Of a DNA stretch of 64,000 bases, positions 3,921 to 48,829 are shown in pieces; position 1 is the first letter of the stretch; each line of letters opens with the position of its first letter. Position numbers and translations under genes: made by a program. The notes under the pieces were generated by a model that had not been told where the DNA came from, did no database searches, and saw nothing but the letters and a program-made list of their open reading frames with translations. The DNA lies in the IMG/VR virus record IMGVR_UViG_3300038393_002515. One strand, given 5' to 3'. This stretch comes from a virus.

Positions 3921-3956
3921 GCTGTCCCGGCCCGGCGGCTCCTCCCCAAGGGGTGA
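3921..3956 (+). promoter_or_regulatory. Bipartite late-gene element copy 1 (GCTGTC-N23-GGGGTGA)
   Basis: GCTGTC 3921-3926 and GGGGTGA 3950-3956. CCTCCC 3941-3946 can pair with the SD GGGAGG 3976-3981. Endolysin ATG is at 3989. Confidence 0.6.
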
Positions 3957-3988
3957 GATCTCACACCACCCCTTCGGGAGGGCACCCC

Positions 3989-4858
3989 ATGACCACGACC
4001 CCCGACTGGCGCCGCCTGGTCGACCACGTCCAGTCCATACCCGAGAAGATCTACGAGACCTGGAACAGCCGCGACGGCTGGGACAACCACACCATCTTCG
4101 GCAAGGAGTACGGCTGGGACGGTGTGGCCTGGTGCTGCATCTTCGACTGGGACATGTACCACGACTGCGGCCTCGACGCGATCGTCCCCAAGACCGCGTC
4201 CGTCGCGGGCATGACCGCCTGGGCCAAGCAGAAGGGCCAGTGGAGCGAGTACCCGAGCATCGGCGCCTGGGTCAACTTCTCCAACGGCGGCCACACCGAG
4301 ATCGTCGTCGGCTTCGACGAGACGTGGGTGTACACCAAGGGCGGCAACAGCATCCAGACCGGGTCCGAGGACAACGGCCAGGGCAACGGCGTCTGGTCCC
4401 ACACCACCGCCCGCCGCGCCACCAAGGTCGTCGGCTACTTCGCCCCGCACTTCCCCGACGGCGTCTGCCCTCCCACCGCCGACCCCAACGACCCGCGCGG
4501 CGGCAAGGCGGTCGCCTCCTGGCGCTGGTCGCCGCAGGTCACCCCCGCGCCGACCAAGCCGACCCCGTCCACCCCGGCGCCGACCAAGCCGAAGTGCCCG
4601 GCCTTCCCCGGCCGCCAGTACTTCAAGCTCGGCGCGAAGAACAAGTACGCCAAGCAGCTGCAGACCTGGCTCGACAAGGGCAACTGGGGCCCCAAGTACG
4701 TCATCGGCCCGTCCGACACCATGACCCAGAAGGACCTCGACAAGGTCAAGGCGCTGCAGGCGCACTACCTCTCCGCGCTCGGCCCGGCCGACGGCCTGTG
4801 CGGCCCGAAGACCTGGCAGTACGCCTTCGAGGTCGCCAACGGTCTGCGCAAGAAGTAG
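3989..4858 (+). CDS. Endolysin: N-terminal CHAP-type amidase/peptidase plus C-terminal peptidoglycan-binding domain
   Basis: Cys (GVAWCCIFDW) and His (GGHTEIVVGFDE) spacing typical of CHAP. Pro/Thr linker with a repeated APTKP. C-terminal LQ..L...GP.DG.CGPKT motif as in PG_binding_1. SD GGGAGGG lies 7 nt before ATG 3989; the listed GTG 3953 sits inside the repeat element. Confidence 0.85.
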   Translation: MTTTPDWRRLVDHVQSIPEKIYETWNSRDGWDNHTIFGKEYGWDGVAWCCIFDWDMYHDCGLDAIVPKTASVAGMTAWAKQKGQWSEYPSIGAWVNFSNGGHTEIVVGFDETWVYTKGGNSIQTGSEDNGQGNGVWSHTTARRATKVVGYFAPHFPDGVCPPTADPNDPRGGKAVASWRWSPQVTPAPTKPTPSTPAPTKPKCPAFPGRQYFKLGAKNKYAKQLQTWLDKGNWGPKYVIGPSDTMTQKDLDKVKALQAHYLSALGPADGLCGPKTWQYAFEVANGLRKK

Positions 4859-4868
4859 CACGCACGGT

Positions 4869-4906
4869 GAAGGCCCGGATTGTGATCATCCGCAATCCGG
4901 GCCTTC
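4869..4906 (+). terminator. Hairpin, intrinsic-terminator-like, after the endolysin gene
   Basis: GAAGGCCCGGATTG (4869-4882) / CAATCCGGGCCTTC (4893-4906): 14-bp perfect stem, 10-nt loop. Confidence 0.6.
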
Positions 4907-4909
4907 GCC

Positions 4910-4945
4910 CTGTCTGGCATGCACGCGGCTGCCGCCAAGGGGTGA
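4910..4945 (+). promoter_or_regulatory. Bipartite late-gene element copy 2 (CTGTC-N24-GGGGTGA)
   Basis: Starts 4 nt after hairpin 4869-4906. GGGGTGA 4939-4945. Next start is ATG 4987. Confidence 0.6.
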
Positions 4946-4986: not shown

Positions 4987-5337
4987 ATGGCCCAGCAGAC
5001 CGACCCCACCACCCTGGGGGACCTGTGGCGGATGATCGAGCGTGACTCGAACCTCACCCGCGAACAGGTCAGGCGTGAGATCGACGACGTCAAGGGTCGT
5101 CTGCAGAGCTTCGTGACACGCGACCACTTCGAGGCCGAGAAGCGGCTGCTGGAGGCCCGCATCGACCACCTGGAGCAGGTCGTCGAGCGCTGGGAGCAAG
5201 AGGCCGAGGAGCAGGCCAGGTCGACCGCCGCCCAGGCCGACTCCCGCAGGCAGAGCCGCCGCGAGTTCGTCTACAAGGGGATCATCCCGGTCCTCGCCCT
5301 CGTTATCGCGGTCGTCTCCATCGTCGCCTCCCGCTGA
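4987..5337 (+). CDS. Tail-anchored membrane protein with coiled-coil (candidate lysis accessory / holin-like)
   Basis: MAQQTDPTT... with a charged heptad-like middle part and one C-terminal hydrophobic helix (GIIPVLALVIAVVSIVA). Sits directly after the endolysin. Function inferred from position only. Confidence 0.6.
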   Translation: MAQQTDPTTLGDLWRMIERDSNLTREQVRREIDDVKGRLQSFVTRDHFEAEKRLLEARIDHLEQVVERWEQEAEEQARSTAAQADSRRQSRREFVYKGIIPVLALVIAVVSIVASR

Positions 5338-5343: not shown

Positions 5344-5379
5344 GCTGTCGCTCCACCGGCGGCAGACCCCAAGGGCTGA
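5344..5379 (+). promoter_or_regulatory. Bipartite late-gene element copy 3 (GCTGTC-N23-GGGCTGA)
   Basis: One mismatch in the 3' box. CCACCGGC 5353-5360 pairs with GCCGGTGG 5404-5411, enclosing the SD GAGGGAGG and the start GTG 5408. Confidence 0.55.
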
Positions 5380-5407
5380 AGGAAACAGGCCGTTGAGGGA
5401 GGCGCCG

Positions 5408-8236
5408 GTGGGCGGCAAGTTCGAGCGCGGCGAGCGCCTGGAGCACCAGACGCTGGGCGTGCAGCGGCTCGCGGTGCGCTCCGAGGACTACTGGGAGTAC
5501 AAGCCCGAGCAGCGCGTCCGGACGATCGACGGCGTCACCGGCGTTGTCAAGCACGTCGAGGACGGACCCTTCCCCGGTGCTGAGGAGTATCACGTCGTCC
5601 TGGACCGGGGCATGGGTGGCGGCCAGTACACCGCCTCGCAGCTCAGCCCGGCCCCCATCACCACCGAGGCCATGGAGCAGACGGCGGCCGCCGACTACCC
5701 CGAGCTCTCCCAGATCCTCGTCGAGCGCCCGGACCCGGCCCGCCAGTTCGTCACGGCGGGCAAGAACCCCTTCGCCGATGACGACAACGACGATGACTCC
5801 TCTGACGAGGGCGACGACTCTCATGACGACTCGCAAGACGACCCACATGACGAGGACGACGACTCCGACGAGGACGACTCGGACGACGACTCCGACGACA
5901 AGGACGCTGACGGCGACGACGCGCCTCCGTGGGCCAAGAAGGCGTCCTCCCTCTTCTCCGACCTGGTTGTGACGGCTGCCACCGATGTCGACTTCCGCTT
6001 CCACATCACGGCCGCCTGGCGCGACGTGGTGGCCAAGGCCAAGCGGATCCGTTCCGAGGGCCGCCTGCGCGTCACTCTCGCCTCCGACGGCTACGTGTTC
6101 GGCGAGGTCAAGGGTGACCACCACGTGTACGAGACCGGCCTGCAGCGCCTGCCTGGCCGGGTGGCCGCGCACTCCTGGTCCTGCGGCTGCAAGTGGGGCG
6201 CCTACCACTGGGGCGCCGACGACGACTTCTCCCGGTTCGCCGGGCGCATGTGCTCCCACGCCCTGGCCCTGCAGTACGAGGCCCAGTCGAGGGGGATGTT
6301 CGGCCGCGACATTCACGTGGACGAGCACAAGCCCACCTGGGTGCCCCGCAAGGTCGTCGTCCGCTACGACATCGACGCCGACACCAACCGGCTCGCGCCG
6401 TCGACCGCCCGCAAGCTCGCCTCGTGGGACGCCCCTGAACCCTCCATGTGGGACATGCATTACGGCGACGACCACGACCACGAAGCCGAGCGCCAGGCCA
6501 AGTCGGACGAGTGGGACAGCATTCACGAGGGACTGGGGGACATCCATCGAGGCGTGAACGTCCACCTGCGCCCCGAGGATCACGCGATCGTCCACGACGA
6601 GTCCCGGCCGCTACACGAGCGCGCCCAGCACCTGCTCAAGTCGCTCCCGCACAGCGACCTGGGCCGTGGCCGCGAGGGCCTGGGACGACACTGGACCGAC
6701 AACGAGGGCGTGGCTGAGTCCTTCGGTGACATGGACGACCGCCCGAACCGGCACGGCACGCACCCGACCTCGGTCATCTTCCACGCCGAGAAGCCCGACC
6801 GGCACGCGATCGACGAGGACCCGGACCAGTCGGACGGGATGATCTACGGCTACCACGACCACGGCGAGAGCGAGATCCCGCTCCACCCTGGGGCCGGGGT
6901 GAACCTCAAGGGCATCTCCTGGAAGAACATGGACACGCCCGACGAGGACTTTCGGACCTTCAAGGGCGACGGCCTCTTCGATCACTACTGGGAGCACCAG
7001 CGTCACGACTTCCCGGGCGGCCAGCACGCCTACGCGTCGCTGAGCAAGGCCCCGTTGTCCACCGTCGCGCGCGCTGCCGTGGCGGCCGGTGAGGACAGTG
7101 CCGAGGTCGAGTTGGCCATGCGCACGGTGGGTATTCGACGGACGGCCAGCAGCTGGGACGAGTACCACGAGGACGAAAACGGCCGCCGGTACACCCTCGA
7201 CGAGGACGGCGAGCCGAACTACACCTGCCACAACAAGTACTGCGACGAGGGCGGCGAGCACGGCGGCGACGGCGAGACCGCACAGCGGCACGACGACGTC
7301 TACACCGACTGGGACACCGTTCACCCGCACCTCGGTCCGCACCTCCACCGGGGCATGGCCGTCAGCCTGCCGGACGACGTGCACGGCGTCGTCCATGACG
7401 ACGGCAGGCCGGTAGAAGAGCGCGCGAGCGCGCTGGCCGACCACCTTCGCGAAGAGGGGCTCGGTACGCACTGGACCCCGAACCACGACCAGGCCAGGCA
7501 CTACTCGGGCATCACCGACGGCCGGGACCGCGACACACACGTCATCCTGCACGCCCACACCCCGGCCAAGGAGCACATCGAGACCGACCCCGACGAGCTG
7601 GCCCGCCAGGACGTCATCGCCATGGGCGACCACGACGACGCCGAGGTGCCTCTGCAGTCCGGCGCCCCGGTGAAACTGAAGGGCATTTCCTGGAGGCACC
7701 GTACCGACAAAAAGTGGACCCGGCACGACTTCCCTGGCGGCCTGCAGCACGAGGCCAACGCCAACGCGCCGTTCGGAGAGCCGTCGGGGACGTCGTACGT
7801 GCTGCCCAAGGCGCCGGGTGCGACGGCGCCGAAGAAGCCGTGGGAGAACCCGGCCTCCGCCGGGCCGCTGGCGGGCGCGGACCCGGCGGGCTGGAACCGG
7901 CAGCTGCCGCTGCAGTCGTACGCGGGCATGGACACCGCGCTGTTCGAGCCCGGCGGTACGGAGGCGACGCTGCACGACGAGCCGGAGGGGGCGCTGCCGT
8001 CCACGGACGGTGCGGTGCCGACGGACGAGGCGTCGGATCTGACGCCGTCGATGACGGCGGGTCTGAAGCGGCAGGCGCTGAAGGACTTCACCTTGGCTGA
8101 GCAGCAGGCGCTGATCAACGAGGGCGAGAACGTGCGGGCGGCGAACCTCGACCGCCTGGACATCAAGGGGACCCACTACGCCGACCTGGAGAGCGTCCTG
8201 GCGGCACAGGAGGAGGACACCACATGGCTGGCCTGA
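5408..8236 (+). CDS. Large SWIM zinc-finger protein with poly-Asp tract and two tandem ~120-aa repeats (polyvalent/ejected-protein-like)
   Basis: SWIM signature SCGCKWGAYHW...RMCSHALAL (nt 6182-6259). Asp-rich run nt 5777-5920. Internal repeat HRG..V.L..D.H..VHD..RP..ERA...GLG.HWT...LKGISW at nt 6545-6928 and 7346-7699. Start taken as GTG 5408 after SD GAGGGAGG. Confidence 0.75.
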   Translation: MGGKFERGERLEHQTLGVQRLAVRSEDYWEYKPEQRVRTIDGVTGVVKHVEDGPFPGAEEYHVVLDRGMGGGQYTASQLSPAPITTEAMEQTAAADYPELSQILVERPDPARQFVTAGKNPFADDDNDDDSSDEGDDSHDDSQDDPHDEDDDSDEDDSDDDSDDKDADGDDAPPWAKKASSLFSDLVVTAATDVDFRFHITAAWRDVVAKAKRIRSEGRLRVTLASDGYVFGEVKGDHHVYETGLQRLPGRVAAHSWSCGCKWGAYHWGADDDFSRFAGRMCSHALALQYEAQSRGMFGRDIHVDEHKPTWVPRKVVVRYDIDADTNRLAPSTARKLASWDAPEPSMWDMHYGDDHDHEAERQAKSDEWDSIHEGLGDIHRGVNVHLRPEDHAIVHDESRPLHERAQHLLKSLPHSDLGRGREGLGRHWTDNEGVAESFGDMDDRPNRHGTHPTSVIFHAEKPDRHAIDEDPDQSDGMIYGYHDHGESEIPLHPGAGVNLKGISWKNMDTPDEDFRTFKGDGLFDHYWEHQRHDFPGGQHAYASLSKAPLSTVARAAVAAGEDSAEVELAMRTVGIRRTASSWDEYHEDENGRRYTLDEDGEPNYTCHNKYCDEGGEHGGDGETAQRHDDVYTDWDTVHPHLGPHLHRGMAVSLPDDVHGVVHDDGRPVEERASALADHLREEGLGTHWTPNHDQARHYSGITDGRDRDTHVILHAHTPAKEHIETDPDELARQDVIAMGDHDDAEVPLQSGAPVKLKGISWRHRTDKKWTRHDFPGGLQHEANANAPFGEPSGTSYVLPKAPGATAPKKPWENPASAGPLAGADPAGWNRQLPLQSYAGMDTALFEPGGTEATLHDEPEGALPSTDGAVPTDEASDLTPSMTAGLKRQALKDFTLAEQQALINEGENVRAANLDRLDIKGTHYADLESVLAAQEEDTTWLA
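5777..5920 (+). repeat. GAC/GAT-rich low-complexity tract encoding ~48 mostly Asp/Ser/Glu residues
   Basis: DDDNDDDSSDEGDDSHDDSQDDPHDEDDDSDEDDSDDDSDDKDADGDD, read directly from the frame of the 5408-8236 CDS. Confidence 0.9.
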
Positions 8237-8710: not shown

Positions 8711-9283
8711 TTACAGGCCCAGCATGAAAACGGGTCCGGCAACGACGGCGCCGAGGATGGCACCGGCGATCGTCTGGGGGACGGTGTGGTCCTTGAGGTG
8801 CTGCCGAGACCAGGCCACGAGCGGGATGAGCGCGGCGGAGAGAATCCACCAGGGGCCGTAGAGCAGGCCGAGCATGGCGAGTGCGCCCGACAGGACGGAC
8901 GTGTGGAAGCTGATCTTGGTGTACTTCGTGATGGGCCACAGAAGGGCGACGGTGGCCAGCATGGCGCCGACCATGGACAGGACCGGCTTCGGGGCCCCGC
9001 CGACGACCATGAGCGTCAGGCAGGTCAGGACGGACAGGACGATGACCGGGATGACGACCATCCGGCGGGACCGCTCGGGGACGTGCCGGTCGGCGAAGGT
9101 CTTCTTCTCGCCGGTGAGGACGATGAACATGATCGGTATGACGGCGCAGAAGACTATGGCCACCGCACCCCAGCCGAGGCCGGACCAGCCGTAGTTCACG
9201 CCGACGAGCATGCACAGGACGAAGATGACGTTCTTGGGGTCGACGAAGTCGGTCAGGGCTCGTGCGGCCTGGGTGCGGGTCAC
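8711..9283 (-). CDS. Integral membrane protein, PAP2-phosphatase-like
   Basis: About 6 hydrophobic helices. C-terminal half carries SFHTSV ... SRQHLKDH, resembling PAP2 motifs C2 (PSGH) and C3 (SRxxxxxHxxxD). GTGA overlap with the upstream gene. Confidence 0.6.
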   Translation of the reverse strand: MTRTQAARALTDFVDPKNVIFVLCMLVGVNYGWSGLGWGAVAIVFCAVIPIMFIVLTGEKKTFADRHVPERSRRMVVIPVIVLSVLTCLTLMVVGGAPKPVLSMVGAMLATVALLWPITKYTKISFHTSVLSGALAMLGLLYGPWWILSAALIPLVAWSRQHLKDHTVPQTIAGAILGAVVAGPVFMLGL

Positions 9284-10548
9284 GCGTGCACTCCGGTGGA
9301 AAGTCTGCGGTACATGAGCCCCAGCTGAGTCGTGTCGCGGATGGACCGGCCGACGGGGAGGAGCGTGTTCGTGGCGATGAAGGGGTCGGTGGTGCCGGTG
9401 AGAGTCGCCAGCGGCTGGATGGCCACCGGTTCGCCGTCGAACGGCTTCTCTCCGTTCCGCTTAAGCCGCATCGCTTCGCGGAGCAGGTAGGCGGCCACCG
9501 CGTGCTCCGGGAGCTTCAGCGCCCGGCCCGCAGCCCCGGCGCGGCTGTGGAGGTCCGGCGGCACGTAGTAGGCGAGGTTGAGGGCGGCATCGAGAATCTC
9601 GTTGACCCTCCTGCGAAGCCGGGTGTCCAGGTCTCGCCAGTCCCAGTACTCGCGCAGGTGGCTGGTCCGCTTGGGCCGCCGGTGTGCCGGGCAGTCGTAG
9701 ATGGCGGTGGGTACCGCGTCGGTGAGGACGGCCCACAGCGGGCGCAGGTCGTTGATGGCTCCGTGGGCCTTCACTATCTCGTTCAGACGCTCCCACTTCG
9801 GGGCCGCGCCTCCGACGACGACGAGGAGGATGCAGGTGACGAGGCAGAAGTTCGAGGTGAAGTCGACGAAGTGGTCGCCGCCGAGGAACGGTTTGTCGCA
9901 CAGGCGGGTGATCAGGTACCCGGAGCGGAGGATCCCGTACGCCGAGCCGATCGAGCAGCCGAGGGCGACGACCTGCATGCCGTACTTGAAGGGGCCCGGG
10001 GCGGCGGCGCGGGCGGCGTCGAGGCACATCAGGGTCGCGCAGATCAGGCCGAAGACGAGGTAGGCGTAGAAGAGCAGGAGGTGGAGGCTGCCCCAGAGGT
10101 GGCCTGCCTGGACGAAGATGAAGTCGGCGTCGTCCTGGTTTCCCGTCCGTCGCTGGGCGAGGGGGAAGATGGCGGTGATGACGGCGATGGCGGCCCAGGT
10201 GATGATGCGTCGGGGGTTGCTGCTGATGAGCTGCCGGTAGGTGGGCTCCCGGCGGCCGTCCAACCGGCCGGGGACGACATCGGTCACCCAGTGCAGAAGG
10301 AGGGCAACGGCGGCGATCCCCGTGAGGTGCTTGGCGAGGGTGGCGATGTCGTCCACGCCGGTGAGGTGGTAGAGGAAGTCCCCGACCGCCTGGATCTTGG
10401 TGACCATCGAGATGTCGAGGGCCAGGAAGACCATAAAGAGGGTCCGGGAGCGGGGGTTGCGGTAGGCGGCGGGTCCCCTGCGGATGACTTCCTCAGTGAG
10501 GAGGACGACGACGATCCAGGCGGGAAGATCGGAAGGTGTGGCGGGCAC
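9280..10548 (-). CDS. Multi-pass membrane protein with a soluble C-terminal domain (MAB_1171c-like putative transporter architecture)
   Basis: 422 aa. The N-terminal ~250 aa has about 7-8 hydrophobic helices and the C-terminal part is soluble. Lies directly downstream of an XRE + HExxH-protease pair, as known for that actinobacterial family. Family assignment is from memory, not a search. Confidence 0.6.
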   Translation of the reverse strand: MPATPSDLPAWIVVVLLTEEVIRRGPAAYRNPRSRTLFMVFLALDISMVTKIQAVGDFLYHLTGVDDIATLAKHLTGIAAVALLLHWVTDVVPGRLDGRREPTYRQLISSNPRRIITWAAIAVITAIFPLAQRRTGNQDDADFIFVQAGHLWGSLHLLLFYAYLVFGLICATLMCLDAARAAAPGPFKYGMQVVALGCSIGSAYGILRSGYLITRLCDKPFLGGDHFVDFTSNFCLVTCILLVVVGGAAPKWERLNEIVKAHGAINDLRPLWAVLTDAVPTAIYDCPAHRRPKRTSHLREYWDWRDLDTRLRRRVNEILDAALNLAYYVPPDLHSRAGAAGRALKLPEHAVAAYLLREAMRLKRNGEKPFDGEPVAIQPLATLTGTTDPFIATNTLLPVGRSIRDTTQLGLMYRRLSTGVHA

Positions 10549-10561
10549 CGGTTCTCATCTC

Positions 10562-11173
10562 TCAGGTGTCGAGACTTGCTCTCATGTTGTTTTCGAGGAG
10601 GGTTGCCCCACGGGGGGCGTGCTTGGCCATCCAGGTCTCGGCGTAGTACCCGAAGTCCTCGGCTTTGCGTTCGCGGTCCTCGTTGCTGGTGCCGTCGGCG
10701 CGGCACTGGACGCCAGCGGCCGCGAGGGAGTCTGACAGGAGGGCCGCCGATCCGCTGCACACCCCCCTCAGGAGGCGGAGGACGGCGGCGAGGTCGAGCC
10801 GGTTGGGCTCGTCTCCGTTGACCATGTGACCAAGCTCGTGACCGAGGACGTGGTGGTACTGCACAGGCGGGATCGTGGGGTGGGCCCACACCAGGTCGGC
10901 GTCCGGGGTGGGGTACCACATGCCGCTCGGCCCGTTCGGTGAGGTCATCCGGGAGTCGCGGCTCAGGATGAGCTTGCGGCCGCGTACCTGCTCTACATAA
11001 GCGCGCAGCAGGTCCTCAACGGTCCAGGGAGACGTGGGAAGCGCCAGTCCCGTCAGCGCCTGCCCCCAGGTCCCCTTCAGGCCGCTCCGGTTCCGCATCA
11101 GTCCCATCCAAGCCCCCAGTTGATCACTAAGGCCGCCATTTACGCCACTCAGCGTAAGGCAAGGGGCTGACAA
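10562..11173 (-). CDS. ImmA/IrrE-like zinc metalloprotease (HExxH)
   Basis: HHVLGHELGHMVNGDE motif. Sits 5 nt downstream of the XRE gene. Start is uncertain: TTG 11173 or the internal ATG at 11107. Confidence 0.7.
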   Translation of the reverse strand: MSAPCLTLSGVNGGLSDQLGAWMGLMRNRSGLKGTWGQALTGLALPTSPWTVEDLLRAYVEQVRGRKLILSRDSRMTSPNGPSGMWYPTPDADLVWAHPTIPPVQYHHVLGHELGHMVNGDEPNRLDLAAVLRLLRGVCSGSAALLSDSLAAAGVQCRADGTSNEDRERKAEDFGYYAETWMAKHAPRGATLLENNMRASLDT

Positions 11174-11178
11174 TGGCC

Positions 11179-11754
11179 CTACCCGGTCTGGTCCTCCTGG
11201 GCCCCCTGTAGGCCGAGCAGCGCGAGACGCAGGATGGCTCTTGCCTGCCCGGAGTCCGCCCCGTCGAGCCCTCGGAAGAGGGCGCCCATCAACGCCGTGC
11301 CCTGGGTACTCTCATCGCTACCCTCCGTAGTGCTGTCGAGCTTCTGGATGGCCTTGGCCGCTTGCACGCCGAGCTCGATGAGTTCCACTTCGCGCTCGAT
11401 CTGTCTGGTTCTCTCCGTGGCGTCGGTGCCGACGCGCCAGTAGTCCGTCTCGACCCCGAAGAACAGACTGAGCGCCTCGATGATGCTGAACGGCGGGTTC
11501 GTCCGCTTGCCGTCCTTCAGGTCGCTCAGGTACTGGCGGTTGACGGCGTCGGACTCTGCTCGAATCATCTCGCACGCCTGTGCGATTTCCTCCATACTGG
11601 CACCGGCGTCCTGGAGCTCCTGGGTCACCCGCGAAATCTTCTTGTCGCGGTACAACCCTGAGGCCCTCGCGGCGATCTCACTCAACGGGTACGTCTGCCC
11701 GTCCGGTCCGCGCTTGAGGTCACGCAACTTGCGGAACTTCTCACCGAGCGGCAT
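11179..11754 (-). CDS. XRE-family helix-turn-helix regulator (candidate prophage repressor, ImmR-like)
   Basis: N-terminal HTH (KFRKLRDLK...YPLSEIAARASG...ISRVTQ) and a second HTH-like segment (NRQYLSDLKDGKRTNPPFSIIEALSLFFGV). Strong SD GGAGGGGGGAGG before ATG 11754. Divergent from the + strand genes. Confidence 0.75.
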   Translation of the reverse strand: MPLGEKFRKLRDLKRGPDGQTYPLSEIAARASGLYRDKKISRVTQELQDAGASMEEIAQACEMIRAESDAVNRQYLSDLKDGKRTNPPFSIIEALSLFFGVETDYWRVGTDATERTRQIEREVELIELGVQAAKAIQKLDSTTEGSDESTQGTALMGALFRGLDGADSGQARAILRLALLGLQGAQEDQTG

Positions 11755-11992: not shown

Positions 11993-12027
11993 CTGTCCGG
12001 GCGCACCTGTACGTCGGCAAGGGGCGA
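11993..12027 (+). promoter_or_regulatory. Bipartite late-gene element copy 4 (CTGTC-N23-GGGGCGA)
   Basis: CTGTC 11993-11997 and GGGGCGA 12021-12027. Next start is GTG 12053, after SD GAGGAG. Confidence 0.55.
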
Positions 12028-39979: not shown

Positions 39980-39981
39980 TT

Positions 39982-40226: not shown

Positions 40227-42077
40227 ATGGGTGTTTCCAGGGACGACATCGTCTCGCAGATGCGTGACGCGCTGCTGGTGTCCGACCCGGAGCTGGACAC
40301 GTCCATCGGCACCCCGGTGCGGAAGATCCTGGACGCGGTCGCAGCGTCGCTGGCCGACGCCTACGTCGAGAACCACCTGCTGTCGTACGCCTACGACATC
40401 GACAGCAAGACGGACGCCGACCTGGACTCCTTCTGCCAACTGTTCGGCATCGCGCGGATCGCGGCCCGGCGCTCGGTCGGCACGGTGACCTTCTCCCGGA
40501 CCGGCGACCTGACCCCGACCGTGTTCATCCCGGTCGGCACGGAGATCGCGTCCTCGTCGGACTCCTCGGTCGTGGTCACCACGGTGGTCGGCGGCACGCT
40601 CATGCCGGGCGCCTCGTCGGTCACGGTGCCAGTCCAGGCCGTGACGGCCGGTCCGGAGGGCAACCTGGGTGCGGGGATGGCCACCCAGATCACCTCCCCG
40701 ATCCAGGGCGTCAACACCGTCACGAACACGGCTGCCTTGACCGGTGGCCTGTCCCGGGAGACCGACTCGGAGCTGCGGACCCGCTGGAAGTCGACCGTGT
40801 TCCGGTCGCTTGCCGGTACGGAGCAGATGTACCGGGGCGTGGCCCTGGACGACACCGACTGCTACGCGGTGTCCGTCGTCGGCTCCTCCCGGACACGATC
40901 GGAGATCCTGCAGGTGCCCGCGACCGGCAACACGGTCTGCCAGATCACGGACGCCCGCTACATCTACTCCTCGCCGGTGCAGGTGACGAAGTCCGACGGC
41001 ACGCCGCTGATCAAGGACTACGACTACACGTGGATCCCGTCGAATCCGCCCGCCATCGCCGGACTGTCGGCGTCGTTCCCTGCGGCCGGTGAGCTGCTCA
41101 CGGTCGAGTACCAGTACCTGCCGGTAGTGAGCCGGAACGACCCGGCGAACAACATCACGAACCGGGTGGACATTTTCGTCGGCGGCACCCGGGCGCAGTC
41201 GGCCCAGACGTCGCTGGTGTTCAAGCAGACGAAGAGGTTCCAGACCGTCTCGACTGTGGACCTGTACACCGGGGCGTGGCTGCGGTCGGACCAGACACGG
41301 CCGGACGCGAACAACGTCTTCGTGCCGCTGCCGTTCGGGCCGATCGTGACCGTGCCGTCCACGATGTCGGTCGCGGGCACGACGTACGGTCTGGCTACGA
41401 CGGCACACCCGCTGGGTACGGTGGCCAACGGCGTGACGTACGCGTACACGGTTGTCCATGAGGACACGGTGGACGGCTGGACGCCGACCTCGCGCTTCGG
41501 CCTGGAGTGGCACCGCACCTACCTGCCCGCCGACAACTCGCCGGTCTCCGTCGGCGGTAACGGCGACTACACCTACAACGAGGTACCCGCCTCGGTGCAG
41601 GACGCGGTCAACCGGTGGCGGTTGACAGGGATCGACGCCCAGGTTCACCAGGCAAAACAGCGCTGGCTGCGGTTCGCGCTGGGCGTGATGTACACGGCGT
41701 CGTCGACTGGGTCGGTTGACTCGGTCCAGGACGCCATCCGGTCCGCCTTGAGTGACTACCTGAACCGGATGGACTTCAACTCCAACGTCCAGATCAGCGA
41801 CGTCCTCACAGTCATCCACCAGGTACCCGGCGTGGACAACTGCCGCCTGCTCAACGGCGCGGACGTGACCGGCTACACCTCGGCCAACCCGAACGCGTCG
41901 ATCGTGGGCGTCCAGCAGATCGCTCCGAACGCGGCTCCGAACTCCGCCGCGCTGTTCTCCCACGTCGACCCGGCAACCGGCCGGGCCAAGGACATCTACT
42001 TCCGCGACGACGAACTGCCCGTGCTCGGAGGCGTGGTCTTCAAGACCCTCGCCCGCAACTCCTTCGGGGTGCTGTGA
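40227..42077 (+). CDS. Baseplate J-like protein
   Basis: 616 aa. N-terminal third matches the Baseplate_J pattern (...GTPVRKILDAVA...DLDSFCQLFGIARI.A..SVGTVTF...VPVQAVTAGPEGN...ALTGG...ETDSELR.R). Confidence 0.8.
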   Translation: MGVSRDDIVSQMRDALLVSDPELDTSIGTPVRKILDAVAASLADAYVENHLLSYAYDIDSKTDADLDSFCQLFGIARIAARRSVGTVTFSRTGDLTPTVFIPVGTEIASSSDSSVVVTTVVGGTLMPGASSVTVPVQAVTAGPEGNLGAGMATQITSPIQGVNTVTNTAALTGGLSRETDSELRTRWKSTVFRSLAGTEQMYRGVALDDTDCYAVSVVGSSRTRSEILQVPATGNTVCQITDARYIYSSPVQVTKSDGTPLIKDYDYTWIPSNPPAIAGLSASFPAAGELLTVEYQYLPVVSRNDPANNITNRVDIFVGGTRAQSAQTSLVFKQTKRFQTVSTVDLYTGAWLRSDQTRPDANNVFVPLPFGPIVTVPSTMSVAGTTYGLATTAHPLGTVANGVTYAYTVVHEDTVDGWTPTSRFGLEWHRTYLPADNSPVSVGGNGDYTYNEVPASVQDAVNRWRLTGIDAQVHQAKQRWLRFALGVMYTASSTGSVDSVQDAIRSALSDYLNRMDFNSNVQISDVLTVIHQVPGVDNCRLLNGADVTGYTSANPNASIVGVQQIAPNAAPNSAALFSHVDPATGRAKDIYFRDDELPVLGGVVFKTLARNSFGVL

Positions 42078-43411
42078 TGGCAGACGACCAGCTCCACCAA
42101 GGCGACGGAACCTTCGGAACGGCCGTCATCTCCGGCGGCCTGATCCCGTTGCAGGCCGACGTCACCGTGCCGCAGTCCACCGCGCTGGCCAGCGGCACGG
42201 GCATGCTCGTGGCCGACACGGCCGTCGCCGAGCAGCTGCGGCACTTCCCCGAGGAGGTCTACGACCTCCGGCCCACCTCGCACCTGGTCCGTCTGATGCA
42301 GGCTCTCCTCGGGGACTCGGGCGTCGGCCAGCTCCGCAAGCGGCTGCTGGTGGCCCAGATGCAGAGCCTGTCCGCCTCCGGGGCAAGGTTTTTCGATCTC
42401 GACCGGTTCTACGGGGCGATCTTCAACGCCACCCGGAACGACGCCGAGGTCCTGCCGATCAACCCCATGGAGACGTCGGCCGCCACGGCCGCCGAGTGGG
42501 ACTCGATCGAGGCCGCCGATGCCTCCTTCCGGGACCGGATGACCGCGCTGGCCAAGGCAATTGCCATGGGCGGCACCGTGCCGGGCCTCAAGGCGGCCGC
42601 CGAGGCCATCACCGGCGTCGAGGCCGACGTCTACGAGTCCTGGGCCCTGATCGACGCCGCCGGAGACACCGACGAGACCGCACACACCTGGGAGTGGATG
42701 GAGGGCGGCACCTGGGGGGACTACGAGGGCGAGATCTGGGGTGCGCTGGAGGGCACACCGTTCTACGGCCGCTCCGGCTCCCTGACCCGCAGCGAGGTCC
42801 TGGTCCGGGTCAACCGCGACTACCCGACCACTCCGGAGGGCCGGGCGCAGCAGGCCAGCGACGAGTCGGCGCTGGTGCGCGTCCTTGAGCGGCTCAAGCC
42901 CGCTCACCTGCTTCTCACGGTGGACACGCAGGGCACCTCGGCCCTCGTGGCACGCGGAATCGCCGGTGTGCGCGCGGACAGCGAGAACTGGGAGATCGTC
43001 CCTCAGGTCACCCCGAGCCAGGTGCCGACCAGCACGAACCCCTACCCGCTGTCGGCGATCCAACAGCAGGACGGCGTGGACCCGAGTTCTCCCCGCGTGC
43101 TGCCGCGCCCGCCACTGACCGCCCGGCTCGGAGACCAGTGGTCCTACGGACAGCAGGTCCCCACCTGCCGCTCCTACGCAGTCGCCCCGGATGACACGGC
43201 CGACTTCACTACGCCCGGAACCGTCCCGGACGCCGACCTCGGCTCGATTGACCAGACGGTTGTCTGGCGCGACGGCACCTCGACCGTCTACCGGGCCTCG
43301 CTCGGCGCGCTCGACCCGCTGCTGAGCCATGCCGCCCGCGCCGGAGGCGACGGCGTGCTGATCGCCAATCCGTACTCCGGCGACCGGCGGACGGTCCTTA
43401 CCACTGACTGA
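42074..43411 (+). CDS. Baseplate protein (gpI-like position)
   Basis: 445 aa, overlapping the J-like stop (GTGATG). Start is GTG 42074 or ATG 42077. Confidence 0.65.
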   Translation: MMADDQLHQGDGTFGTAVISGGLIPLQADVTVPQSTALASGTGMLVADTAVAEQLRHFPEEVYDLRPTSHLVRLMQALLGDSGVGQLRKRLLVAQMQSLSASGARFFDLDRFYGAIFNATRNDAEVLPINPMETSAATAAEWDSIEAADASFRDRMTALAKAIAMGGTVPGLKAAAEAITGVEADVYESWALIDAAGDTDETAHTWEWMEGGTWGDYEGEIWGALEGTPFYGRSGSLTRSEVLVRVNRDYPTTPEGRAQQASDESALVRVLERLKPAHLLLTVDTQGTSALVARGIAGVRADSENWEIVPQVTPSQVPTSTNPYPLSAIQQQDGVDPSSPRVLPRPPLTARLGDQWSYGQQVPTCRSYAVAPDDTADFTTPGTVPDADLGSIDQTVVWRDGTSTVYRASLGALDPLLSHAARAGGDGVLIANPYSGDRRTVLTTD

Positions 43412-43697: not shown

Positions 43698-43733
43698 GCT
43701 GTTCTTCAACCCTCCGGCGTCACCAAGGGGTGC
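43698..43733 (+). promoter_or_regulatory. Bipartite late-gene element copy 17 (GCTGTT-N23-GGGGTGC)
   Basis: CCCTCCGGCGTC 43710-43721 pairs perfectly (12 bp) with GACGCCGGAGGG 43739-43750, which contains the SD. The loop is ACCAAGGGGTGCAAGGA. ATG is at 43763. Confidence 0.65.
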
Positions 43734-43762: not shown

Positions 43763-46700
43763 ATGGCCGACCTGTACGCCAACTACGCCGCGCTGGCCGC
43801 CGCGCGGCAGATCGGTGTGGACTACCGGATCCTGGTCCGTACGCCTCCGGGCTCCCGGCTGGCGCACATCGCCATCCACGGTGGCGGCATCGAGCCGGGC
43901 ACCACGGAGGTCGCGGACTACCTGGCCGGGTCAGCCAGCCGGTTCTACTCCTTCGACGGCATGCTGACGTCGGGAAACAGCGACCTACACATCACCTCGA
44001 CGAACTTCGACGAGCCGCAGGCCCTGGACCTGGTCGCGGCCGCCGACTACGTCATCTCCTGGCACGGCGCGGCCGGGGCCGAGCCGATCACTTACGTCGG
44101 CGGCCTGGACACAGAGACGGCTGAGCGGATCAAGGAGGCTCTGGAGCAGGCAGGATTCACGGTGTCGCCTGCCAGCGAGGAGCTGAACGGCGGCGACCCG
44201 GCGAACATCTGCAACAAGGGCACCCGGCTCATGGGCGTGCAGATGGAGCTGTCGCTGGGCCTGCGGCAGTCCTTCTTCGAGGACTTCACCCGGCCCGGCC
44301 GGGACAGCGGCGCGCGCACCTCGGTCTTCTACGCCTACATGGTCGCGATCCAGACGGCACTCAACGGCCTGGACGTGCCGGGCAAGGCGATCGGGTCGGC
44401 GTGGAAGGGCCGGGTTGCCCAGCCCGTGACCGGCACCGGGTCGGCGTCCGGAGACTTCGGTATTCCGGCCCTGGCGCCGTTGACCGTGGACGGCATGCCG
44501 CTTGACTCGCTCAAGGACGCGTTGCGCCTGTCAACTCAGCGGCAGGCGTCGGGCAACATGGAGCGGTTCTGGTCAAGTGCCCCCCGCGACAACGGTGACC
44601 CGGTGCGGGAGGTGTTCGAGTTCTCGCTGGCCACGGCCCGGCCGGTCAACCGCGTCTCGTTCTCTCTCGCGCGGTTCCCGCAGCGGGCCTGGGTGCAGTA
44701 CCGCGACGCCGACGGGCTGTGGCGGCCGCTGCAGAACGCGCGCCTGGGCGGCCCGGTCCAGATCAGCATCCTGGACTCGGTCCCGGCGGTGATCCCGGCC
44801 GGTGTGGCCGACGACGTGAAGCTGCACCCGCAGCACTTCGGTGCCGGGCACTGGATGGCGCAGGAGGTCGACGTCCAGCCGGTCACGGCGAGCCGGTTCC
44901 GGATCGTCATGACCCGGCTGCCGTCGTCGGCGTACCCGCGCGGCTCGGACAACCAGCCGGTTGCCTACTCACTCGGGGTCAAGGACGCGCTGGTGTCCTA
45001 CCGCGCCTCCAGCTTGACCGACCTGCCGTGGCTGCCGCAGCAGGACGCCGAGCACACGGTGCCGATTGCCGGGTCAACCGACCTGCTCGGCTCCCAGGTT
45101 GACTACCTGCTCCGGCGCAACCGGGCGGACAACCTGGTACCACCCGCGAGCGGCGTGTGGCGTTGCGCACCGCAGCCGGTCCCGAACGCCGTGGTGAGCC
45201 TGTACCTGGACCTGCGGACCTCGGACGGCAGCGCTCAGGTCGTGGACCGGCTCTACGTTGACCCGGTCACGTCGGGTGTGTCGTGCAACCTGTACTACAC
45301 CGACGCCACGGTGGTGCCTGAGCGGTTCGAGCCGTCCGACGCGCCCTTGACCTTGCCTCTTGTCCGGGCAAGCACGGACACCCCGGTCGTTGACAGCGAG
45401 GGCGTGCTCTTTGACTCGGCCGACTCCTACCTCGACGTGGACAACAGGGCCTGCCAGTTCGACCCGGGCCAGCCGTTCCTGATGGGCATGGTGGTCTACC
45501 CCCAGTTCACCTCCGGCGACACCGGTCAATTCACCGTCCTGGACACCCCGGCCATGACCATCTGGTTCGAGGCCGGGTCGGTCAAGGTGCGCCTGGGTGA
45601 CCGCACAGTGGAGATGGACCCGGTCACGTTCGGAGTCAACGAGCGGATCCCGCTGGCGGTTGCCTACGACGGGTCGACGTTGACCGTGCGCACCCCGTGG
45701 TCAACCCGGATTCAGGAGGCAACTCACGTCGTTGCCCAGGCACCGCCGAACGTGATCCGGCTCGGCGGCCCGCTCTCGGGTCCGGGCGGCTCGATCCGGT
45801 TGCGCAACCTCTTCCTCGCGCTCGGGCGCGCCGCCGACGTCGACACCATCGAGGCCTACTGGGACGACCCGGCGGCCTACGCCCTCAGCCCCGGCTACGG
45901 GCAGGACGGGACCGCGCACACCAGCGCCAGCGCGATCTTGCGGATGGACCCCAGCCTGATCACGGCTGGGCAGGAGTCGGTGTGTCCGTGGGGGCTGATC
46001 GGTGGCCCGCCGGTCGCTCTGGACGACCTGGTGTGGACACCGGTCCCCGGGGACTTCACCCTGCGCAAGGGGCTGATGAAGTTCCGGCCGATCAAAGCCC
46101 GGCATCTGAAGATGGAGTTCACCAACCTCCAGCCGATGGTGCTGACGCCGTCGCAGGCCTCGCCGCTGGTGGAGACCAGGCTGTTCCCGGCCGACACCGG
46201 GCAGGGGTCCAGCATCGTCGCGTCCGGCGCGACCGTCTCCGGCGCGGCCCCGGCGGGCGCCCGGGTCGCCACCGAGCAGGGCGCGGTCTACCAGTACGTG
46301 GACGCCAACCGGATCGTGTCCTCCACGTCCAGCAGCGCCCCGTACCTGCCCACGGAGGCCCTGTACGCGCCGGATCCGCTCGCAGCGCAGCAGCTGCGCC
46401 GCTCGGGCCAGCGGTTCCCGTACATGCCGCTGCCGGGCACCAAGGCGCCGCGCTTCACCAGCACGGGAGTGCACCGCTACCACGTGGTCCAGCTGGCCAT
46501 GGACACCAAGGTCGGCTACACCGTCGCTCTGTCCCAGGTCCTGGCCTACCTGGCCGACCCGGTCGCGCAGCGCGACACCGAGCAGTACGTCGAGCTGTTC
46601 CACGACACGGCCTACCTGTCCGGCTACGACGCGTCCCAGCAGGGCGGATGGAAGCACACCGGCACTGCGATGGTCACCACCGATCAGCCGCCGTCCCAGG

Positions 46701-47944
46701 GTGCGCAGGCCGTCTCCAAGACGTTCGTCAGCAAGCGCCGTGTCCTGGCGGTGCAGTTCGCCGCGCAGACCTCCCAGCCCAAGCAGCTGGTCGCCGATCC
46801 GGACTTCGACGACCCGAGCCTGCACTTCTGGCGGCCGGTCGGTGACGCCACGGCGGAGTCCTCGACCCAGTACGCCTCCACGATCGGCCGCATGGCCAAG
46901 GTCACGCGTGGCCACGCGGCGTCCTCCTGGGGCTCCCTGGAGTCCCGCTTCCCCACCTGGGGGGACATCGAGGACTCCGACCCGCTGCCGAACCGGCCGC
47001 TGTGGTGGGAGATCGAGAACGCCACCAGCTCGGCCGACTTCGGCGGCATCGAGTCGCTGTGGCCGGTGAACCCGGCGCCGCGCGGCCGCCTGTACGCGGC
47101 GGCCCGGGTCTACACCGACGCCCCGCTGGCCGCCCCACTGCTGCTGCAGCTCGTCAACGGCGACGGCCGGATCATCGCCTCGACCGCGCGCAGCTTCGAC
47201 TCGGCGCAGGTCGGCGAGTGGTACGTCGGCGCCACCATCGACACCAGTCCGCCCAACCCGCTCACCTGGGACACCGTGTCGGCCCACGACACTCGCACGT
47301 GGTCGGACATGGAAGCCCTCGGCATGTGGGGTGACGTCGCCCAGGACTGGGACGTGGATGACGTCCACGATGTCCGCGTCCGCGTCATCCAGGAGGGCAG
47401 CGCGGGCACCGGCGTGTGGCACGTCGACAGCCTCGCCATCTTCAACGACCCGATCGTCTGGGAGATCTCCCGCGACGGCGGCGTGAACTGGTACGAGATG
47501 ATCGACATCAAGAACAACCCGCGCGGCGTGTTCCAGTTCCCGGATCTGCCCAACACCGACCGCTCCGGCGGCACTCAGCTGCGGTGGAGGGCCACCGGCT
47601 ACGCCCCGGGTCTCTCGCTGTCCTCGGTCGTCCTGCGGCCGTGGTACGCCACGCTGACCGGCGCGGTCCCGTACCAGGACACCCTGCAGGCGGCTGGGGC
47701 GGCGAGTTCGCTGGCCGACTACTACCCGCCGGTCGATTCCGATCCGCTGTTCCAGGGGTGGAAGAGCCCTATCCCCGAGGACTGGTGGCTGGCGTTCCGC
47801 CAGTGGATGCAGCAGAACGCCCCGAAGACCGACCCGCTGCCCGCGATCACTCTGCCCGAGGCGGTGGCCGAGGGCACCAACGAGGGCGCTCCGCCCGCGC
47901 TGGCTCGCCACGTCCTGTCCGACGCCTTCGTCCTCAACCGCTAA
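43763..47944 (+). CDS. Giant tail fibre/host-recognition protein with an N-terminal poly-gamma-glutamate-hydrolase-like (DUF867/PghP-type) domain
   Basis: N-terminal ~175 aa: IHGGGIEPGTTEVA...LHITSTNFDEP...ISWHG...VGGLD...LNGGDPANICN...GVQMELS..LRQSFF matches the PghP/UPF0714 signature blocks. The remaining ~1200 aa are beta-rich. Confidence 0.8.
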   Translation: MADLYANYAALAAARQIGVDYRILVRTPPGSRLAHIAIHGGGIEPGTTEVADYLAGSASRFYSFDGMLTSGNSDLHITSTNFDEPQALDLVAAADYVISWHGAAGAEPITYVGGLDTETAERIKEALEQAGFTVSPASEELNGGDPANICNKGTRLMGVQMELSLGLRQSFFEDFTRPGRDSGARTSVFYAYMVAIQTALNGLDVPGKAIGSAWKGRVAQPVTGTGSASGDFGIPALAPLTVDGMPLDSLKDALRLSTQRQASGNMERFWSSAPRDNGDPVREVFEFSLATARPVNRVSFSLARFPQRAWVQYRDADGLWRPLQNARLGGPVQISILDSVPAVIPAGVADDVKLHPQHFGAGHWMAQEVDVQPVTASRFRIVMTRLPSSAYPRGSDNQPVAYSLGVKDALVSYRASSLTDLPWLPQQDAEHTVPIAGSTDLLGSQVDYLLRRNRADNLVPPASGVWRCAPQPVPNAVVSLYLDLRTSDGSAQVVDRLYVDPVTSGVSCNLYYTDATVVPERFEPSDAPLTLPLVRASTDTPVVDSEGVLFDSADSYLDVDNRACQFDPGQPFLMGMVVYPQFTSGDTGQFTVLDTPAMTIWFEAGSVKVRLGDRTVEMDPVTFGVNERIPLAVAYDGSTLTVRTPWSTRIQEATHVVAQAPPNVIRLGGPLSGPGGSIRLRNLFLALGRAADVDTIEAYWDDPAAYALSPGYGQDGTAHTSASAILRMDPSLITAGQESVCPWGLIGGPPVALDDLVWTPVPGDFTLRKGLMKFRPIKARHLKMEFTNLQPMVLTPSQASPLVETRLFPADTGQGSSIVASGATVSGAAPAGARVATEQGAVYQYVDANRIVSSTSSSAPYLPTEALYAPDPLAAQQLRRSGQRFPYMPLPGTKAPRFTSTGVHRYHVVQLAMDTKVGYTVALSQVLAYLADPVAQRDTEQYVELFHDTAYLSGYDASQQGGWKHTGTAMVTTDQPPSQGAQAVSKTFVSKRRVLAVQFAAQTSQPKQLVADPDFDDPSLHFWRPVGDATAESSTQYASTIGRMAKVTRGHAASSWGSLESRFPTWGDIEDSDPLPNRPLWWEIENATSSADFGGIESLWPVNPAPRGRLYAAARVYTDAPLAAPLLLQLVNGDGRIIASTARSFDSAQVGEWYVGATIDTSPPNPLTWDTVSAHDTRTWSDMEALGMWGDVAQDWDVDDVHDVRVRVIQEGSAGTGVWHVDSLAIFNDPIVWEISRDGGVNWYEMIDIKNNPRGVFQFPDLPNTDRSGGTQLRWRATGYAPGLSLSSVVLRPWYATLTGAVPYQDTLQAAGAASSLADYYPPVDSDPLFQGWKSPIPEDWWLAFRQWMQQNAPKTDPLPAITLPEAVAEGTNEGAPPALARHVLSDAFVLNR

Positions 47945-47953
47945 GGAGCCTCT

Positions 47954-48775
47954 GTGCGCGCGCACTTCAACCGCGCCCTGCTCGACCTGCAGGGCAACCA
48001 GGTCCCCACCGCCACGGTGCGGCTCCTGGCCCCTGGCACCACCACGCCGTACGGCCAGACCATCTACGCCGACGCGACCAGCGGTACGACCCGCACCAAC
48101 CCGTGGACGACCACGACCGGCGAGGTGGACTTCTACCTCGACGCCCCGGACCGCGTACGGATCGGTGTCCAGGTCGGCACAGACCCGGAGGAGTTCTGGG
48201 ACAACGTCGATGTGACGGCCGTCGGTACCGACTCCACCCATCCCGGCTCGGGCAACCAATCCCTGCAGATCGGTGTCGGCGCGGCCGCCACCGGTGTGCA
48301 CTCCGCCGCGCTGGGGCAGGGCGCCCAGGCCACCGCTGACTCCACCGTGGCGGTGGGCGAGCAGGCGACGGCCTCCGGCGTCGGGGCTGTCGCCACAGGC
48401 TCCCAGGCGGACGCCACGGCGCCCGGCGCGGTTGCGCTCGGCCAGTCGGCGCTGGCGCAGGGCACCCAGGCCACGGCCATCGGCGATGCCGCGAAGTCGC
48501 AGTGGAACCATTCCACCGCCGTCGGCGCGGGCGCCCAGACCGACCGCCCCCACCAGGTCGTCATCGGCACGTCGGCCGAGACTGTCTTCTTGCCCGGCGG
48601 GATCGCGCTGCAGAGCCCCAACGGCAGCACCTTCATGGTCGGCGTCACGAACGACGGTCTGCTGTACACCCAGCAGCTGCCCACCTACGTGCCGCCGCCG
48701 GTACCGGACGAGGGCTCGGGCGAGAGCACGGGAGACGGCGGGGACACGCTCCCGGGCGACGTCAGCGGGGGCTGA
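47954..48775 (+). CDS. Tail fibre protein with Ala/Gly-rich YadA-head-like repeats
   Basis: SD AAGGAG before GTG 47954. Repeats of the form S.A.G..A.A....(S/T)VAVG. N-terminal domain is paralogous to those of the 48843 and 51790 products. Confidence 0.7.
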   Translation: MRAHFNRALLDLQGNQVPTATVRLLAPGTTTPYGQTIYADATSGTTRTNPWTTTTGEVDFYLDAPDRVRIGVQVGTDPEEFWDNVDVTAVGTDSTHPGSGNQSLQIGVGAAATGVHSAALGQGAQATADSTVAVGEQATASGVGAVATGSQADATAPGAVALGQSALAQGTQATAIGDAAKSQWNHSTAVGAGAQTDRPHQVVIGTSAETVFLPGGIALQSPNGSTFMVGVTNDGLLYTQQLPTYVPPPVPDEGSGESTGDGGDTLPGDVSGG

Positions 48776-48794
48776 CGCCGGTTATCTACTCCTT

Positions 48795-48829
48795 GCTGTG
48801 CCGCGCCTCCCTCGTGACTGAAGAGGTGA
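48795..48829 (+). promoter_or_regulatory. Bipartite late-gene element copy 18 (GCTGTG-N22-GAGGTGA)
   Basis: CCTCCCTCGT 48806-48815 pairs perfectly with ACGAGGGAGG 48829-48838 (SD). Start is GTG 48843. Confidence 0.55.

Follow-up and report, generated by a model that had tools for sequence, protein, structure and literature searches.

A repeated two-box element ahead of virion and lysis genes as a candidate late promoter in relatives of the Cluster C mycobacteriophages

Introduction

The late promoter of phage T4 is a single AT-rich -10-type octamer, TATAAATA, which is read by gp55 and gp33 together with the sliding clamp. The promoters of SPO1 that depend on gp28 and gp33/34 and the T4 middle promoters that depend on MotA and AsiA are built differently, from two short boxes at a fixed spacing with a consensus foreign to the host, and serve one temporal class; in SPO1, the purine box AGGAGA, which resembles a Shine-Dalgarno (SD) sequence, acts as a promoter element. 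The phage-plasmid myovirus P1 has about ten late promoters, which carry an extra conserved element and need the activator Lpa. Here we describe an element in a 64,000-nucleotide (nt) stretch of viral DNA, the IMG/VR record IMGVR_UViG_3300038393_002515 (the whole of which is called the window below), that has the form CTGTC, about 22 unconserved bases and then AAGGGGTGA. We think it rather probable that this element is a late promoter that is read with a phage-dependent factor and that heads each late transcription unit.

Among actinophages, the start-associated sequences (SAS) of Cluster K mycobacteriophages are single 13-bp blocks that lie a few fixed bases from the start codon and contain the working ribosome-binding site (RBS). 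The stoperators of Cluster A are present in twenty to thirty-odd asymmetric copies, in short intergenic regions and oriented one way with respect to transcription, and the Cluster C phages have been described as not temperate and as having no prophage maintenance functions (PMC3029335). In the long early transcripts of the T4 genes e, soc, 49 and I-TevI, the ribosome site is hidden in a hairpin, and it is the transcripts from late promoters inside this structure that are translated (PMC3014915). A 2022 review pointed out that few mycobacteriophage late promoters have been characterized and that they merit study, being very active (PMC9262239). No description of a late promoter of Cluster C-type myoviruses was found in the full-text literature, subscription-only papers lying outside the search.

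Results

The strict pattern CTGT-N23-27-GGGGTGA has 10 exact matches in the window, all on the + strand, compared with 0.34 expected from dinucleotide-preserving shuffles, and a count of at least 10 was reached in 0 of 100 such shuffles. This is in agreement with the original prediction, made from the letters alone, that ten exact copies exceed chance, and each of the 18 copies that it listed is indeed present where it was placed. A two-block weight matrix built from these 18 sites, with a reporting level of at least 10 bits, found 19 copies on the + strand of the window and none on the - strand, so that the claim of strand specificity stands while the total has to be raised by one. The added copy, at 15768-15802, uses the TGA of its box 2 as the stop codon of the gene at 12762-15794; the claim that all copies are intergenic thus holds for 18 of the 19, according to gene calls from codon-position GC, but not for this one, which overlaps the last codons of that gene. 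The distance from TGT to AGGGGTGA in the window copies is 22-24 nt, with 23 nt commonest. At 18 sites, and as predicted, a start codon follows shortly, 10-57 nt after the end of box 2 and preceded by a separate SD sequence downstream of it; the copy at 18745 has no open reading frame (ORF) behind it.

The window copies precede virion and lysis genes only. Neither the reverse-strand cassettes nor the replication genes at 55-64 kb have any, and for the cassettes the matrix scan confirmed what had been predicted. The corresponding claim for the replication genes is correct within the window but fails beyond it, where the replication module contains at least one copy. This 20th copy stands about 5.4 kb past the end of the window, ahead of genes for a 48-aa, a 249-aa and an SSB-like protein, at position 16530 of L086, a 154,827-bp metagenome contig that is identical to the window across the shared part.

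The expectation that relatives would keep both the boxes and their spacing was also borne out. Applied to 1.06 Mb of related loci, the window-trained matrix gave 224 sites on the strand of the late genes and none on the opposite strand, and the strict pattern gave about 135 matches on the + strand and 5 on the - strand across all loci. The gap is 23 nt at 156 of the distinct sites, 24 nt at 26 and 22 nt at 15, and the logo of these 197 sites reads T-S-C-T-G-T-C-Y, followed by 16 uninformative positions, a C, four weak positions and then A-A-G-G-G-G-T-G-A-R-R-R, the boxes holding 0.8-2.6 bits per position and the spacer approximately 0. Orthologous sites, for example the one about 636 nt before the capsid gene, retain the boxes and the gap with a rewritten spacer.

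The same architecture, CTGT-N22-AAnnnnT(G/A)(A/G), is found in the Cluster C mycobacteriophages JayJay and Myrna and in Rhodococcus phage E3, and the distance from TGT to AA, counted by hand, is likewise 22 nt in E3 and JayJay. Other lineages retain CTGT and the spacing, with the middle of box 2 altered: box 2 is AAGGGGTGA in the window lineage, GAAGAGGTGA in the related loci L028 and L056 and in Myrna, GAAGAAGTGA in L070, GAAGGGGTAGG in L022, GAAAGGGTAGA in L045, CTCGAATAGRTGAGG (GAATAGRTGA) in JayJay (C1) and CATCAATAGG (CAATAGG) in E3. Since the lineage of L045 has a GC content of 46% and keeps the two boxes, the element survives a large shift in base composition; the capsid protein of L045 and L048, which both belong to this lineage, is 82% identical, and the form that they share is CCTGTC-N-GAAAGGGTAGA. 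Downstream of the JayJay sites lie large structural genes, a gene for a minor tail protein and lysin A. JayJay and Myrna have a common host, M. smegmatis mc2155, and yet differ in box 2, which would point to a phage-encoded specificity determinant rather than to a host sigma factor. No recognizable motif was seen near the capsid gene in the capsid-related lineages L040, L054, L060, L068 and L074 (78-80% identity), some of which have instead a gene for a helix-turn-helix (HTH) protein right after the capsid gene.

The placement of the copies suggests that they act in transcription. Two of them, at 11993 and 39505, mark the two places at which genes on the + strand take over again from reverse cassettes. 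Very strong hairpins (z-scores of -3.3 to -8.2) end 2-8 nt ahead of five copies, and one of these hairpins, at 40133-40166, has a T-tail; if they terminate transcription, the motif itself must be the next promoter, because there is no room for another. Furthermore, spacing that holds to within one nucleotide, despite differences in the sequence and the predicted structure of the spacer, is as expected for a protein that reads two patches of duplex DNA. The replication genes instead carry SigA-like sites of the form TTGCxC-N17-18-TAnnnT, such as TTGCGC-N17-TAAGTT at 61446-61474 and TTGCTC-N18-TAGCGT at 63721-63750, both on the + strand and ahead of replication-module genes. The small non-structural genes of JayJay have a different SigA-like repeat upstream, CATAsCGC...GTTATAGT, followed by a CACACAC-rich leader (loci L083-L085), and this motif probably represents a SigA-type early/middle promoter class.

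The proposed geometry would place box 1 (T-S-C-T-G-T-C-Y) at the -35 position and the invariant AA plus G of box 2 at the -10 position, separated by a spacer that is fixed in length and free in sequence; GGGTGA would then form a G-rich discriminator, and transcription would start at the purines 1-3 nt after TGA. If CTGTCY is taken as the counterpart of TTGACA, and AA as positions 4-5 of a -10 hexamer (nnnAAG), the spacer would be 17 bp. Perfect SD sequences (GGAGGTGG) start 1-2 nt past box 2 at 34904 and 39505, where the start codon follows 10-11 nt past box 2, and this would put the 5′ end of the transcript at or before the purines that follow TGA. The actinobacterial -10 element is TANNNT, with an essential T and A, and because these are missing, host SigA alone is unlikely to use the sites. 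A consensus without TANNNT, together with a box 2 that differs among lineages on one host, argues for recognition through a phage-dependent specificity factor, which could be either a sigma that has diverged or a protein that appropriates or activates the holoenzyme of the host.

Several known signals were also tried and rejected. The GGGTA in box 2 of L022 and L045 resembles the GGGTAT -10 of a sigmaB/SigF-type promoter, but box 1 lies about 8 nt too far upstream for such a promoter and the implied start would cut off the SD sequences at 34904 and 39505. The AA/GGGG of box 2 resembles the start regions of the T3 and SP6 promoters, but in a T7-type single-subunit promoter the positions from -22 to -2 would not be left unconserved as they are here. 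A leaderless GTG start within box 2 would be in frame at 2 sites only, and the GTG is lost in the GTAG variants.

Along the window, the copies are distributed as follows. The copy at 3921-3956 (GCTGTC-N-AAGGGGTGA; 30.8 bits) precedes the endolysin gene, and is followed by one at 4910-4945, whose box 1 adjoins a 19-bp hairpin at about 4866-4909 (z -8.2) and which lies ahead of a gene for a 116-aa protein (4987-5337). Next, at 5344-5379, is a copy with GGGCTGA ahead of a 947-aa gene (5393-8236), with the start region of which its spacer pairs (z -4.0). After the reverse cassette at 8711-11754, the copy at 11993-12027 (GGGGCGA) stands before the first + strand gene (12053-12358), and the head genes then begin with the copy at 12687-12721 (AGGAGCGA), ahead of the gene for a 1010-aa protease-domain head protein (12762-15794). 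The copy at 15768-15802 (GCTGTC-N-GAAGCGGTGA; 25.0 bits), which has orthologous copies in relatives, precedes a gene that starts at 15860 or 15875 and ends at 16729. The copy at 16805-16840, whose orthologues have scrambled spacers, lies ahead of a 170-aa gene (16896-17408) and the major capsid gene. Two tandem copies follow, one at 18745-18780 that directly adjoins a conserved non-coding RNA and one at 18868-18903 that begins 2 nt past the terminal hairpin of this RNA and precedes the genes at 18937-20630. The next, at 20681-20716 (GGGGCGA), follows a 14-bp hairpin at about 20644-20679 (z -3.7) and heads a block at 20741-24828 that includes ThyX.

Among the tail genes, the copy at 24845-24879 has a 10-bp stem (GCGCCTCCTC/GAGGAGGCGC) that flanks box 2 and covers the SD of the gene at 24894-25565 (z -4.3), the copy at 26294-26328 precedes the genes at 26344-27734 (z -3.5), and the copy at 28006-28039 precedes the tail sheath gene. 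The block for the tube, chaperone and tape measure (29734-34854) is headed by the copy at 29674-29709, after a 16-bp hairpin at about 29638-29673 (z -5.3). The next copies are those at 34904-34938 (CTGTG...GGGGCGG; 17.0 bits), ahead of an 827-aa structural gene with a lysin domain (34949-37432), and at 39505-39539 (GTGTT...GGGGGTGA; 18.9 bits), before the baseplate gene at 39551-39979, which is the first + strand gene after the reverse cassette at 37751-39393. An intrinsic terminator at 40133-40172, with a 13-bp stem plus ATTTTT (z -4.2), touches with its T-tail the box 1 of the copy at 40173-40208, which lies ahead of the baseplate genes at 40227-43411 and in which a 22-pair hairpin links the whole spacer to the SD region (z -6.2). 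Finally, the copy at 43698-43733 (GGGGTGC), with a 12-bp stem flanking box 2 (z -3.8), precedes the gene for a 1393-aa fiber (43763-47944), and the copy at 48795-48829, with a Myrna-type box 2 (GAAGAGGTGA; z -6.4), precedes the fiber and spike block at 48843-55028.

The original prediction described the spacer as unconserved, and this is true of its sequence, which is scrambled among orthologues, but not of its composition and pairing, since C makes up 50% of it and it is complementary to the leader that follows. It contains 8% A and frequent CCTCC-like runs. The fold of the region from just past TGT to 40 nt beyond box 2 has a mean z of -2.6, compared with -0.33 for random windows and +0.21 for motif-less gene starts (Mann-Whitney p ~1e-6). 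When the folded segment runs from box 1 to just 5 nt past box 2, the mean z is -0.59 with inconsistent structures, so the structure needs the leader, and inspection by hand showed that the two boxes of the window lineage are not complementary to each other. The spacer forms explicit stems with the SD or start region at 5344, 20681, 24845, 26294, 34904, 40173 (22 pairs), 43698 (12 perfect pairs) and 48795; pairing of the SD region is thus found at about half of the sites only. The pairing is specific in the window, where a spacer binds its own leader at -23.4 kcal/mol and the leaders of other copies at -19.2 kcal/mol (0 of 5000 permutations), and where reversed or shuffled spacers also bind the leader less well than the spacer itself. 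In the relatives, the specific component is small (-18.4 vs about -17.2 kcal/mol, p ~2e-4). In the averaged profile of pairing, the apex coincides with the AA of box 2. At the JayJay sites, a loop of 9-10 nt contains box 2 and the 3′ arm contains GGAGG (z -3.4 to -6.0).

These hairpins suggest the possibility of a T4-like gating logic. The C-rich spacer would pair with the leader and the SD, hiding the ribosome site in read-through RNA, whereas an RNA started at box 2 would not contain the 5′ arm and would be translatable.

A candidate small RNA of about 90 nt is located on the + strand at 18777-18868, between the tandem copies at 18745 and 18868 and downstream of the capsid gene. The 87 nt after the copy at 18745 are nearly invariant in ten relatives, and since the indels are not multiples of three and break the frame, a coding function is ruled out. 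The RNA folds into three hairpins, the last of which is a 13-bp terminator-like stem with a C-rich loop. With a covariance model, the RNA was found in 18 related loci in addition to the window, among them contigs from Streptomyces isolates, and 11 of its pairs show compensatory changes, a number matched in 0 of 500 shuffles; the alignment used for covariation was fitted to the covariance model and includes one reverse-strand match. The conservation begins at box 2, and in the related locus L019, too, box 1 and a variant form of box 2, AGTGGATGA, stand ahead of the RNA in the same register. Rfam 15 gave no match at gathering score in the whole window, with only chance matches (E ~9) near 18830, and tRNA scans found nothing. 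The sequence is thus a candidate for a new late phage small RNA driven by the copy at 18745.

The window is part of a ~155-kb myovirus or phage-plasmid, a distant relative of the Cluster C mycobacteriophages. Scans of its proteins against PHROG and Pfam place a portal gene, cut by the window start, a tail-spike-like protein at 1018-3918, the endolysin at 3989-4858, the protease-domain head protein at 12762-15794, the major capsid protein at 17443-18429, ThyX at 23742-24461, the tail sheath at 28068-29594, the tube, chaperone, tape-measure region and hub at 29734-37432, the baseplate at 39551-43411, fibers and spikes at 43763-55028, and helicases and an exonuclease at 55.1-63.7 kb. The reverse cassette at 8711-11754 has weak matches to a metalloprotease and an HTH regulator, and that at 37751-39393 encodes a ParA-like ATPase plus a partner. 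The product of 26344-27099 (+ strand) matches the Pfam family of rifampin ADP-ribosyltransferase (Arr-ms) weakly and below threshold (21.6 bits vs a cut-off of 25), and no PDB sequence match supports this assignment; if the match is real, RNA polymerase could be the target that it modifies.

Megablast found no close cultured phage at the DNA level. Identity of the capsid protein is about 59% with its counterparts in Cluster C mycobacteriophages, the Rhodococcus phages E3 and Finch and the Gordonia phage Skog, and IMG/VR contains about 196 relatives whose genomes are close to 155 kb. Relatives that show a capsid identity of 88-95% (loci L092-L097) are 151-157 kb contigs in assemblies of Streptomyces isolates, and one of them was deposited as a complete plasmid, ‘plasmid pRLB1-9.1’. 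Since close relatives sit in these assemblies, the host is probably a Streptomyces, and the phage may be maintained as a phage-plasmid.

Discussion

Among the roles put forward in the original prediction, that of a late promoter is the best supported, by the spacing, the restarts after the reverse cassettes, the terminators, the non-coding RNA and the class of genes that follow. The part of that proposal which invoked a phage sigma factor has not found support, since no sigma factor or RNA polymerase was found in the window, in the next 10 kb or in the annotation of JayJay.

A late promoter of this kind would resemble the T4 system in being present in many copies before virion and lysis genes, and in lying within the DNA for the 5′ arm or apex of an SD-pairing hairpin. 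It differs in that it consists of two G-rich boxes at a sigma70-like spacing, that no gp55-like protein was found, and that the hairpin, which in T4 is known at a few genes, is predicted here at about half of the 19 sites. As for the SPO1 and MotA promoters, box 1 contains a TGCT that is reminiscent of the MotA box TGCTT, but the sequences are unrelated, and the MotA box lies at -30 beside a normal sigma70 -10, which is absent here. The P1 late promoters likewise keep a sigma70 -10 hexamer, together with a 9-bp inverted repeat at about -22, and neither is present here. The original prediction drew a likeness to the Cluster K sequences, and these, both the SAS and the extended SAS (ESAS), are indeed strand-specific repeated actinophage motifs upstream of starts that contain an SD-like purine run. 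However, the likeness fails on their defining feature, a fixed position at the RBS: here box 2 is 10-57 nt from the start, there is a separate SD, and a second box lies 22 nt upstream. The consensus and the candidate small RNA are new and the clade is wide, whereas phage late promoters combined with T4-like translational gating are of an already known kind.

The most serious competitor is that the element acts in RNA, as a bipartite operator within the late mRNA, in which a long hairpin would have single-stranded CUGUC at its base, would show AAGGGGUGA at its apex and would bury the SD in its 3′ arm until the structure is opened by a phage late translational activator, by an Hfq-like protein or by 30S standby binding at the SD-like apex. 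This would account for the significant spacer-SD hairpins, which the original prediction missed, for the apex at the conserved AA, and for the fact that the hairpin often spans from right after box 1 to the start codon. The JayJay sites, with box 2 in the loop and GGAGG in the 3′ arm, would fit it as well, and a JayJay hypothetical protein other than the one considered below belongs to the Phage_Hfq family. Nonetheless, we consider such an operator unlikely. The linear gap of 22-24 nt is held although the stems vary, and a folded RNA would give no fixed geometry; box 1 has no conserved downstream partner; about half of the sites leave the SD unsequestered; and at 18745 there is no ORF that could be regulated. 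Furthermore, the five sites directly after terminator-like hairpins would be left without a promoter, and a distance to the start codon that varies from 10 to 57 nt is a poor fit to an operator at the ribosome site. Pairing with the 16S tail, which is strong for the window box 2 (-12.1 kcal/mol), ranges from -12.6 to -3.2 kcal/mol among lineages (-3.2 in C1) even though the architecture is kept, and this weakens the anti-SD or standby role that had been proposed.

It is improbable, in our judgment, that the element is instead a signal for RNA processing or stability, with hairpins cut by RNase III or a phage endoribonuclease and the boxes as determinants for the nuclease. Long imperfect intergenic hairpins in an array of genes on one strand are reminiscent of the RNase III sites of T7, and the strong upstream hairpins could be 3′ stabilizers, but box 1 lies outside any conserved helix, many sites have weak hairpins or none, and this explanation does not account for the copies at strand-switch restarts, for the spacing fixed to ±1 nt, or for lineage-specific changes of box 2 in phages with a common host. 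Slimmer still is the chance that these are stoperator-like sites at which the immunity repressor of a phage-plasmid silences the late genes, as in Cluster A mycobacteriophages. The many oriented, asymmetric intergenic copies would be in line with this, as would the temperate or plasmid-like appearance of the window lineage (the ParA-like and HTH/metalloprotease cassettes, and the relative deposited as a Streptomyces plasmid). However, stoperators are contiguous 13-bp repressor sites that occur genome-wide in temperate phages, whereas the element is bipartite with an unconserved gap of 22 nt, is confined to late genes, with the early and replication genes of the window lacking it, and is shared with the Cluster C phages, which are not temperate (PMC3029335).

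The late-promoter interpretation also has to contend with several observations of its own. Domain scans detected no sigma factor, RNA polymerase or obvious activator in the window or in the next 10 kb, and none is annotated in JayJay. Two proteins are the sole leads to the factor, and they are leads only. Among 65 JayJay hypothetical proteins scanned, gp219 has a sub-threshold match to Sigma70_r4_2 (22.8 bits vs a cut-off of 25.7), but no gp219 homologue was found in 84 kb of the genome of the phage described here. The other is a 201-aa protein encoded about 3.7-4.3 kb past the window end (L086, 14554-15159), between a DnaB-like helicase and a primase, which carries a WhiB-like domain at its N-terminus and is extended by about 85 aa; proteins of the WhiB family bind region 4 of sigma, and this one is a possible player in late transcription. 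In addition, the start site and the -35/-10 assignment are derived from geometry only, and the hairpins could equally mean that the spacer belongs to a functional RNA with its 5′ end upstream of box 2. Hairpin strength is also heterogeneous, the pairing energy in the relatives comes mostly from base composition, and the strongest hairpin, at 40173, lies behind a good terminator, a place where there seems to be the least need to occlude read-through RNA.

If the element is a late promoter, its consensus in cultured phages (JayJay, Myrna and E3) and in ~150-kb Streptomyces phage-plasmids makes the switch-on of late genes testable in a tractable host, and the lineage-specific variants of box 2 offer a handle for finding the cognate factor through co-variation. 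The element could also be a source of expression signals that depend tightly on the phage, for use in Streptomyces and Mycobacterium, and it improves the calling of start codons and operons in the clade. Beyond this, we raise as a tentative and still rather doubtful possibility that Cluster C mycobacteriophages, Rhodococcus E3-like phages and Streptomyces phage-plasmids share a clade-wide double gate, in which a non-canonical promoter, read through a fast-evolving phage specificity factor with no canonical sigma detectable, would be combined with a hairpin that blocks the translation of RNA started elsewhere, and to which the new late small RNA would be added. Such a double gate, if true, would be a genome-wide version of the device known from gene e of T4.

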